28,335 nucleotides of DNA from the IMG/VR virus record IMGVR_UViG_2737471849_000009, one strand, 5' to 3'. The stretch is from a virus. Taxonomy: Duplodnaviria > Heunggongvirae > Uroviricota > Caudoviricetes. The translations under genes were made by a program, and so were the position numbers. Shown here piece after piece: positions 13,301 through 13,789 of the stretch. Under the pieces are notes generated by a model. It saw nothing but the letters and a program-made list of their open reading frames with translations. It ran no database searches and was not told the DNA's origin. Within the stretch, counting starts at the first letter, position 1, and every line of letters begins with the position of its first letter.

Positions 13301-13789
13301 ATGGCTATTCAAATCTCAGTTGAAACTCTTTCCCCGATCACCCATAACCAAATCCCTGTCATTACTACCGAGCTTTTGGCACAACTTTATGGCACCGAAA
13401 CTAATAACATCAAAGTGAACTATACACGCAATGCCGAGCGTTTTGTTTGTGGGAAACACTACTTCAAATTGGAAGGGGCTGAGTTGCGGGAATTTAAGAA
13501 CAAGGTTACTCAAAGTAACTTAGTTGCACCGCGTACAAAGCACCTCATCCTCTGGACAGAACGCGGAGCAGTCCGTCACGCCAAAATGCTGGAAACCGAT
13601 CAGGCGTGGGAAGTGTTCGAAAAACTGGAAGACTGTTATTTCAGCCAAAAACAACCACCAGCAGCACAAAACACCCCAACCCAAAATGATGGATGCGCAT
13701 TACTGATCCACTTCGATAAACACGGTCAGGTCGACTTCACGGAAAAACTACCCGCCGATGCGATGGTATGCACTCTGGAACGGTTTTAA
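13301..13789 (+). CDS. ORF6N-domain protein (antirepressor N-terminal domain paralogue)
   Basis: 162 aa; LILWTERGAVRHAKMLETDQAWEVFEKLEDCYF aligns with the antirepressor N-terminal domain at 6649..7509; the two genes share the identical 17-bp DNA string ctctggacagaacgcgg. Confidence 0.65.
   Translation: MAIQISVETLSPITHNQIPVITTELLAQLYGTETNNIKVNYTRNAERFVCGKHYFKLEGAELREFKNKVTQSNLVAPRTKHLILWTERGAVRHAKMLETDQAWEVFEKLEDCYFSQKQPPAAQNTPTQNDGCALLIHFDKHGQVDFTEKLPADAMVCTLERF

Follow-up and report, generated by a model that had tools for sequence, protein, structure and literature searches.

In the immI region of phage P1, C4 RNA represses ant, and icd lies between c4 and ant with translational coupling. 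The immI regions of P1 and P7 (c4, icd, ant1/ant2) carry the sites a1/b1 upstream of C4 and the sites a2/b2 downstream of it, over the RBS, and their specificity is set by the C4 elements a' and b'. Part of this description of P1 immI follows the literature cited in PMC8546580.

A related locus, isrK-orf45(STnc1160)-anrP-isrJ, was described in the Gifsy-1 prophage of Salmonella Typhimurium by Hershko-Shalev et al. 2016 (PMC4825925). According to that paper, overexpression of AnrP raises antQ-operon mRNA and induces Gifsy-1, and IsrK supplied in trans increases anrP translation more than 100-fold. The same paper names the immunity system of satellite phage P4 (CI RNA, seqA/seqC) as a structural analog.

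In this study, we analysed an ORF6N gene at 13301..13789 of the window, by which we mean the whole 28,335-nucleotide stretch of phage DNA. We consider it likely that this gene supplies the protein component of an RNA-gated antirepressor cassette of the Gifsy-1 type, related to P1/P7 immI and inserted between the Q antiterminator gene and the late promoter PR'. The cassette is an E. coli member of the already described Gifsy-1 isrK-anrP / P1 immI type, with a derived truncation.

Comparison with described systems

Gifsy-1 and the window share one order of elements: Q, a cassette promoter, IsrK with its terminator, a C4-type RNA and an ORF6N protein. The Gifsy-1 DNA aligns with the window through the promoter, isrK, the terminator, C4, b2, a conserved GATTGGCGTC box and the RBS, and Rfam places isrK and C4 at the equivalent Gifsy-1 positions. 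In both prophages the cassette is located between Q and a short RNA that normally abuts Q. The two loci differ in the Q family (PF06530, 933W-type, in the window; PF06323, 82-type, in Gifsy-1) and in the a' specificity (UUCCUUUUUC in the window, UCGGUGAU in Gifsy-1). The small ORF of the window has 34 codons and no start-codon overlap, whereas orf45 of Gifsy-1 has an ATGA overlap. Furthermore, the window protein lacks the last 24 residues relative to the AnrP family. We did not find isrJ in the window, where the match scored 13.9 bits against a gathering score of 37 and was of a kind typical of terminators; a 933W-type PR' leader is present instead.

The window C4 belongs to the same Rfam C4 family as that of P1/P7 immI (RF01695, RF03163) and is likewise predicted to control an antirepressor, with a1/b1 upstream, a2/b2 downstream over the RBS and specificity set by a'/b'. 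Unlike P1, the window has no icd, and no gene (no icd-like ORF) was found there between C4 and the ORF6N start codon; C4 would act directly at the RBS of the antirepressor gene. The window encodes a small ORF6N protein as antirepressor, in place of the Ant1/Ant2 of P1/P7, and the host element is a lambdoid prophage in the former and a plasmid prophage in the latter.

The nin-region Ant cassettes of Stx phages (such as P27, PA28 and Min27) are also similar, with isrK and C4 at 84% DNA identity followed by an ORF6N protein, 'Ant', and the a'/b' elements of P27 are identical to those of the window. However, these cassettes sit between ninE and roi, not after Q, and their 224-aa Ant has a different C-terminal part, with 56-57% identity over the shared region. 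In P4, a processed antisense RNA likewise lies between complementary sites, but P4 CI causes premature transcription termination of replication genes rather than RBS occlusion of an antirepressor gene.

Two ORF6N paralogs in the window

The original prediction described two paralogous ORF6N genes, and an ORF check found both as it gave them. They are listed here together with the repressor gene of the prophage:

6649..7509, + strand: paralog 1, Ant-type, 286 aa, with ORF6N at residues 16-100 and KilAC/ANT at residues 173-257 (Pfam)
13301..13789, + strand: ORF6N protein of AnrP type, 162 aa, stop codon at 13787-13789 (Pfam, PHROG, alignment)
5450..6139, - strand: CI-like S24 repressor (Pfam)

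The predicted similarity of the two N-terminal domains was borne out. BLASTP aligned residues 9-136 of the 286-aa product with residues 5-133 of the 162-aa product (58/129 identities, 45%, E 3e-36), and Pfam detected ORF6N (PF10543, cut-off 27.8) in both proteins, at 67.1 bits (E 1.8e-18) in the former and 76.3 bits (E 2.3e-21) in the latter. The homology is at the level of the domain and is not confined to the short DNA string that the genes share. KilAC/ANT (PF03374) was detected by Pfam in the 286-aa protein only (28.9 bits, cut-off 25.3) and was not found in the 162-aa protein or its 186-aa relatives, in agreement with the prediction that the second gene lacks the antirepressor C-terminal domain.

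The identical 17-bp string is also real. The 17-mer CTCTGGACAGAACGCGG has exactly two copies, at 6910-6926 and 13550-13566, slightly off the positions first given (~6907 and ~13549), and two matches were seen in 0/100 shuffles. Both genes read it in frame as LWTERG, which is the best-conserved motif of the ORF6N domain. Recent recombination, duplication or gene conversion was considered as its origin and rejected, since nucleotide identity over the aligned ORF6N domain is just 53.6%. The second-longest exact run in the domain is 9 nt, and the 17-mer is therefore a conserved peptide motif shared by old paralogs.

The 286-aa protein matches PHROG 63 'anti-repressor Ant' (E 2.8e-47). Its gene is the first after a cro-like gene (6273..6572; cro/YdaS-like), and it therefore belongs to the CI-repressed early-right operon. 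The paralogs are predicted to be wired as a repressor-controlled early gene and an antisense-RNA-gated cassette, not as an early and a late gene. The earlier view of a domain-shuffled regulator expressed at a different stage thus holds in part: the genes are ORF6N paralogs with different wiring, but the early/late split does not stand. The 162-aa protein is also not a cut-down form of the 286-aa protein, since it belongs to a separate ~186-aa family with its own C-terminal module. It has reportedly long been recognised, from the work of Iyer, Koonin and Aravind in 2002, that phage regulators mix ORF6N/KilA-N-type N-terminal domains with various C-terminal modules. Such mixing of N-terminal and C-terminal domains is visible here as well, with the N-terminal 125 residues common to many PHROGs.

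A strong GC-rich hairpin was also seen at 6596-6625 of the window, in the gap that separates the cro-like gene from the first Ant gene. Only on the minus strand, where the T run is located, does this hairpin score as an intrinsic terminator, and no obvious minus-strand gene ends there.

The leader between Q and the ORF6N gene

We annotated the following elements between Q and the ORF6N start codon:

13032..13061, + strand: cassette sigma70 promoter TTGACC-18-TATATT (scan, 10/12 matches), predicted start ~13068
13055-13107, + strand: c4-a1b1 (Rfam, 52.2 bits, gathering score 46.7)
13068..13142, + strand: IsrK-type small RNA, the a1/b1 leader (Rfam isrK, 79.4 bits, gathering score 50)
13093-13099, + strand: b1, TTGGCGT, complementary to the C4 bulge b' over 7 nt
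13107-13114, + strand: a1, GAAAAAGG, complementary to the C4 loop a' over 8 nt
13122-13137, + strand: IsrK intrinsic terminator, followed by a T run (terminator scan)
13165..13250, + strand: C4-type antisense RNA (Rfam, 74 bits, gathering score 45)
13206-13215, + strand: C4 loop a', TTCCTTTTTC, the hairpin-2 loop of the fold
13220-13228, + strand: C4 single-stranded bulge b', TTACGCCAA (fold)
13255-13261, + strand: b2, TTGGCGT, complementary to b' over 7 nt
13285-13293, + strand: a2, GAAAAAGGA, complementary to a' over 9 nt; holds the Shine-Dalgarno sequence AAGGA, 7 nt before the ATG

A promoter and leader after Q and a terminator after the gene had been predicted. These sequence features are real, but the leader, judged by its Rfam matches, is an isrK + C4 antisense-RNA module. 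The cassette promoter is the counterpart of PisrK in Gifsy-1, and the window C4 is a homolog of P1 c4 and Salmonella STnc1160. Its MFE fold is canonical, with an outer stem, two hairpins and a single-stranded bulge. Each C4 element pairs with two sites: the loop a' (TTCCTTTTTC) with a2 (GAAAAAGGA) and a1 (GAAAAAGG), and the bulge b' (TTACGCCAA) with TTGGCGT at 13255-13261 and at 13093-13099. We also found a small ORF of 34 codons (13169..13273), which overlaps C4 and ends 28 nt before the ORF6N ATG.

Co-variation of C4 and its target sites

We built a C4 covariance model and used it to survey ORF6N loci. At almost all of the 80 viral loci, and at ~20/80 diverse bacterial loci, the model found a C4 whose end lies ~50 nt before the ORF6N gene. 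Across 27 relatives, 98% of the cells of the C4 fold are paired and compensatory changes occur in 20/27 pairs, in an alignment that had been fitted to the model; slid controls were 28-53% paired.

The 55 distinct modules represent 42 combinations of loop (a') and bulge (b'). Unrestricted folding of C4-target RNA duplexes disrupted the C4 fold and was uninformative. Complementarity was therefore scored for the loop and the bulge only, and matches of at least 6 nt to the module's own leader were compared with those of non-cognate pairs. The loop a' is complementary to its own downstream leader in 49/55 modules (17% of non-cognate pairs), and the bulge b' in 50/55 (9% of non-cognate pairs). The IsrK sites co-vary likewise, a1 in 38/55 modules and b1 in 52/55. 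In these modules b2 is located ~3 nt past C4, and a2 is located 30-36 nt past C4, on the Shine-Dalgarno sequence. This co-variation supports translational repression of the P1 type, in which C4 would occlude the RBS and IsrK would serve as a decoy. It is also consistent with the more than 100-fold rise in anrP translation measured in Gifsy-1 when IsrK is supplied in trans.

The small ORF that starts from the conserved AUGGUGGG has 3-76 codons, apart from modules in which it continues in frame into the next gene. An overlap with the start codon of that gene is seen in just 2/51 modules, and in the window the small ORF ends 28 nt upstream. On these grounds we rejected carrying the translational coupling of Gifsy-1 orf45 over to the window; an overlap of the orf45/anrP kind is so rare that the coupling step cannot simply be assumed there.

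Specificity elements were also seen to be swapped between very close relatives. E. coli CFSAN029787 (L008 3069-3150, aligned to window 13165-13250) has the same Q, an intact 186-aa allele and the same a', and its C4 has a different bulge and different targets (b' AAGACCAA with TTGGTCT). This recalls the heteroimmunity of P1 and P7.

A second RNA module and the state of the prophage

The window carries another complete RNA module of the immI type, here called module A, which would gate a Rha-like gene:

7755-7783, + strand: promoter TTGATT-17-TACACT (promoter scan)
7790-7866, + strand: isrK (Rfam, above the gathering threshold)
7891-7978, + strand: C4, with a' GTTCTATGTTGA and the same b' as the module at 13165-13250 (Rfam, pairing)
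7983-7989, + strand: b2 (complementarity)
8013-8021, + strand: a2, TCAACATAG, which pairs with a' GTTCTATGTTGA
8033..8398, + strand: Rha-like gene, 121 aa, PF09669 (Pfam, PHROG)

Since module A and the Q-adjacent switch share b' and differ in a', the two may be only partly insulated from each other.

An ORF at 7715-8398 (especially 7778-8044) runs through the isrK and C4 of module A. Its residues 22-110 match the Pfam 'Ash protein family' (PF10554), and PGAP names the equivalent ORF of E. coli E21845 'ash family protein'. An open frame over isrK-C4 is found in 37/61 modules, and the frames are inconsistent. The sequences suggest that 'Ash' is a GC-rich structured RNA modelled as a protein. In E21845 (L009 2188-2481, aligned to window 7747-8040), an extra tandem copy of the module A RNA, 86% identical, lies before a 281-aa Rha-family gene. 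The window has a single module A RNA copy, and its small genes at 8391-8854 differ from those of E21845.

Positions 12600-14900 of the window are 100% identical to E. coli E21845/O/A and OU342919, and this whole span occurs in only 12/5,426 complete E. coli genomes. Compared with the 99.9-100% identical E21845 prophage (L009), the window prophage looks defective at ~15238 and from ~18611 onward. Near ~15238, the window lacks 982 bp of the lysis cassette, comprising the end of one holin gene, another holin gene, the M15 endolysin and a portion of a hypothetical gene. The window then diverges from E21845 just past the terminase large subunit (~18611). The tape-measure gene (19489..22689) follows within ~900 bp, without the portal, protease and capsid genes between the two.

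A truncated AnrP-type protein

The 162-aa protein matches PHROG 2379 'anti-repressor' from end to end (E 2e-77). Over residues 1-162 it shares 59% identity with STM2616 of Gifsy-1, which is AnrP, the product of the gene directly downstream of antQ/isrK. Its nearest database relatives are 94-96% identical and 186 aa long. A DNA alignment showed that the window allele lacks exactly 72 bp (24 codons), in frame, compared with intact alleles that have identical flanks. The deletion junction is located at 13784/13785, between imperfect T-AAATTTT repeats, where ...LERF is fused to the native stop codon and the 3' flank is intact. Judged by these alignments, the gene is a truncated allele of a separate, populous ~186-aa AnrP-type family (PHROG 2379).

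In a set of 5,426 complete E. coli genomes, the deletion allele was present in 13 and the intact allele with the same flanks in 16. The deletion allele is 99.7-100% identical in its 13 genomes, which come from several countries and hosts and include the E21845 prophage.

In an AlphaFold model of an intact relative (mean pLDDT 79.8), a disordered linker (118-130) joins the ORF6N domain (1-117) to a small beta-beta-alpha-alpha module (131-186, pLDDT ~76-87). In this model, the deleted residues 163-186 form half of one helix and the whole last helix of the C-terminal module, a loss that would probably cripple the 162-aa protein. The deleted residues include the nearly invariant positions G170, W171, V173, L179, E181, L183 and M184. 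For the C-terminal module, neither a fold search of the PDB with the AlphaFold model nor a profile search of PDB sequences gave a significant match.

The gene could accordingly be read as a decaying pseudogene in a defective prophage, in which neither the ORF6N gene nor the RNA module still does anything. PGAP flags the deletion allele as 'incomplete; missing C-terminus' (pseudogene), conserved residues are lost together with most of the C-terminal module's helical portion, and the prophage lacks the endolysin, portal, protease and capsid genes of the near-identical E21845 prophage. However, the deletion is exactly in frame and retains the native stop codon, and the ORF6N domain, the promoter, IsrK, C4 and the four target sites are intact and mutually complementary. 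The allele is also present at such high identity in all 13 of the genomes noted above, one of which carries the more complete E21845 prophage, and other prophages could still be regulated in trans by the RNAs. We regard full decay as possible, though not the likely state of the locus.

A different question is what the intact protein does. The induction of Gifsy-1 by the homolog AnrP, as described in PMC4825925, is what points to an antirepressor function of the AnrP-type protein. Alternatively, the ORF6N protein could be a DNA-binding transcription factor (KilA-N/APSES-like fold) that acts directly on phage promoters, as an activator or a repressor. AnrP raises antQ-operon transcription and induces the prophage, and the sections of PMC4825925 consulted show no binding of AnrP to a repressor. 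The best fold matches of the N-terminal domain, all of them non-significant (E > 0.1), are DNA-binding domains such as Mbp1. The PHROG annotations, together with proteins in which this domain is fused to KilAC/ANT, speak instead for the antirepressor class, and we consider a direct transcription factor quite unlikely.

Position of the cassette relative to PR'

The position of the gene relative to the late promoter was judged from the following features:

12632..13027, + strand: Q antiterminator gene, 131 aa (PF06530, PHROG 79)
13808-13835, + strand: homolog of the Stx-phage PR', TTTACG-16-TATCCT (homology to Sp5), predicted start ~13842
13865-13886, + strand: hairpin followed by a T run (terminator scan), homologous to the ~+24 hairpin of the Stx-phage PR' leader
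14013-14756: AraC-family/HTH gene (PHROG 1450) that has a terminator of its own and lies past the predicted PR' but before the holin start codon at 14936
14781-14800 and 14896-14911: terminators past the AraC-family gene

At the protein level, the window Q shares ~80% identity with the 144-aa Q found in Stx phages of the 933W/Sp5/Min27 type. The two align up to ...EMDRYVER and then diverge, which marks the left cassette junction. Directly past the ORF6N stop codon, window 13807-13890 matches Sp5 712-794 (81% identity, E 1e-17). In Sakai Sp5, TTTACG-16-TATCAT overlaps the Q stop codon and lies 257-258 nt upstream of the sole strong terminator (tR'). We placed the Sp5 PR' by the published PR'-tR' spacing of 258 nt (PMC7547250), with a Sakai mapping that assumes a constant 142-nt offset between genome versions and is internally consistent. 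PR' in the window was assigned by homology; with TATCCT as its -10 element it reaches 8/12 matches, which is under the scan threshold. The related Q of E. coli O55:H7 was discarded as a guide to PR', its context being an unrelated AT-rich moron.

The Q block and the PR' block are separated by 64 nt in Sp5 and by 805 nt in the window. Judged by this difference, the cassette (~13030-13790) is a ~740-bp insertion between Q and PR'. The PR' homolog at 13808-13835 lies past the stop codon at 13787-13789, and the ORF6N gene is not downstream of PR' and the Q-utilisation region; by this homology-based assignment the gene is upstream of PR' and not a late gene. The hairpin at 13865-13886 had been taken for the gene's own terminator, which is not what we found: it is the conserved ~+24 hairpin of the PR' leader, and it probably ends the cassette mRNA.

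Two arguments about the promoter were set aside. Constitutive expression of IsrK and STnc1160 in Gifsy-1 lysogens was dropped as proof against a late promoter, since PR' promoters are themselves constitutive and terminated (PMC7547250). The possibility that the cassette promoter doubles as PR' was rejected, since a PR' homolog was found downstream of the ORF6N gene.

The original prediction had placed the second gene under the late promoter, so that the Q-adjacent promoter would be the Q-dependent late promoter and the ORF6N gene the first late gene, expressed late in the lytic cycle. Although this promoter begins 5 nt past the Q stop codon, a simple scan found no other sigma70-like promoter from Q to the holin gene (with four intrinsic terminators in between), at least 21 of the 33 distinct upstream genes are Q-like, and constitutive IsrK is compatible with a PR' promoter, we hold this explanation to be very improbable, because the same promoter (TTGAC-N17/18-GGGGCTATAxT) is present in every cassette context, including after integrase, ninE/dam and lar genes and, without Q nearby, in module A of the window, because DNA matches confined to the cassette begin inside the promoter spacer (13045-13050), because the homolog of the mapped Stx PR' lies past the gene, and because in Gifsy-1 and its relatives the Q-abutting RNA isrJ likewise lies past anrP. 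The promoter is the cassette's own.

The hairpin and T run of the PR' leader (Sp5, L172 769-790; window 13865-13886), at ~+24 to +45 of the PR' transcript, resemble an intrinsic terminator, and the published StxS transcript nonetheless runs 258 nt. Candidate roles of the hairpin are a partial terminator, a pause site or a Q-loading element. Further downstream, the AraC-family gene resembles a moron inside the late leader.

The Gifsy-1 segment past anrP, including isrJ, is homologous to DNA that, in phages of Enterobacter and Klebsiella, abuts the 3' ends of 82-type Q genes. These phages lack isrK and C4, and their isrJ begins 16 nt past the Q stop codon. Since isrJ abuts Q in cassette-free phages, the Gifsy-1 cassette was likewise inserted after Q. 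IsrJ itself (Gifsy-1 L001 3097-3171; L173 1537-1610; L174 1533-1611) has the position expected of a terminated PR' leader RNA. Counterparts of such leader RNAs are lambda 6S RNA and StxS.

The genes directly upstream of cassettes were named from PHROGs, NCBIfam having given no names. Of 33 distinct genes in this position, at least 21 encode Q-like antiterminators, which fall into four unrelated Q families, and C4 follows the stop codon of the upstream gene at a nearly fixed spacing of 130-145 nt. We tentatively suggest, as a possibility rather than an expectation, that the cassette is a mobile module which settles preferentially at the Q/PR' junction, and that this position, if selected, wires the RNA-gated inducer to early/Q read-through.

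Proposed mechanism

For the E. coli prophage, the regulatory steps that follow are all carried over by analogy from Gifsy-1 and P1. The near-consensus cassette promoter (13032-13061) would fire in lysogeny, as the Gifsy-1 data indicate for their locus. Most transcripts would end at 13122-13137, giving a short IsrK with a1 and b1, elements that are seen in the sequence. In the read-through RNA, C4 would pair its a'/b' with a2/b2, cover the Shine-Dalgarno sequence and block translation of the ORF6N gene. The complementarity and co-variation behind this step were computed here, and the repression itself is presumed from P1.

The a1/b1 sites of IsrK would then mimic the target and either titrate C4 or remodel the leader, so that translation is turned on. 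The co-variation of a1/b1 was computed here, and the activation was demonstrated experimentally for Gifsy-1 only. Finally, the intact 186-aa form would act like AnrP, presumably by inactivating a CI-type repressor.

Implications for prophage biology

Taken together, the region after Q would not be a simple leader of the late genes but an RNA switch in three parts (decoy, antisense RNA, target) for an inducer protein, with the actual late promoter beyond the cassette. The wider points are the three-way co-variation, the recurrent Q/PR' placement and the RNA modules annotated as 'Ash' proteins. The last of these is an annotation issue: a portion of the RNA module is treated as an 'Ash family protein' by PGAP and Pfam.

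If the Q/PR' position is selected, it could serve feed-forward commitment or the cross-induction of co-resident prophages, and the terminators and transcription of the cassette would fall directly over the late promoter. A corollary, if this is true, is that IsrJ would be the PR' leader RNA of 82-type Q phages, as StxS is in phages of the 933W type. Cassettes of the isrK-C4 kind are common among prophages of enterobacteria, with many pairing specificities (42 combinations in 55 modules), often between Q and PR', and they bear on how co-resident prophages, including Stx phages, may trigger or ignore each other.
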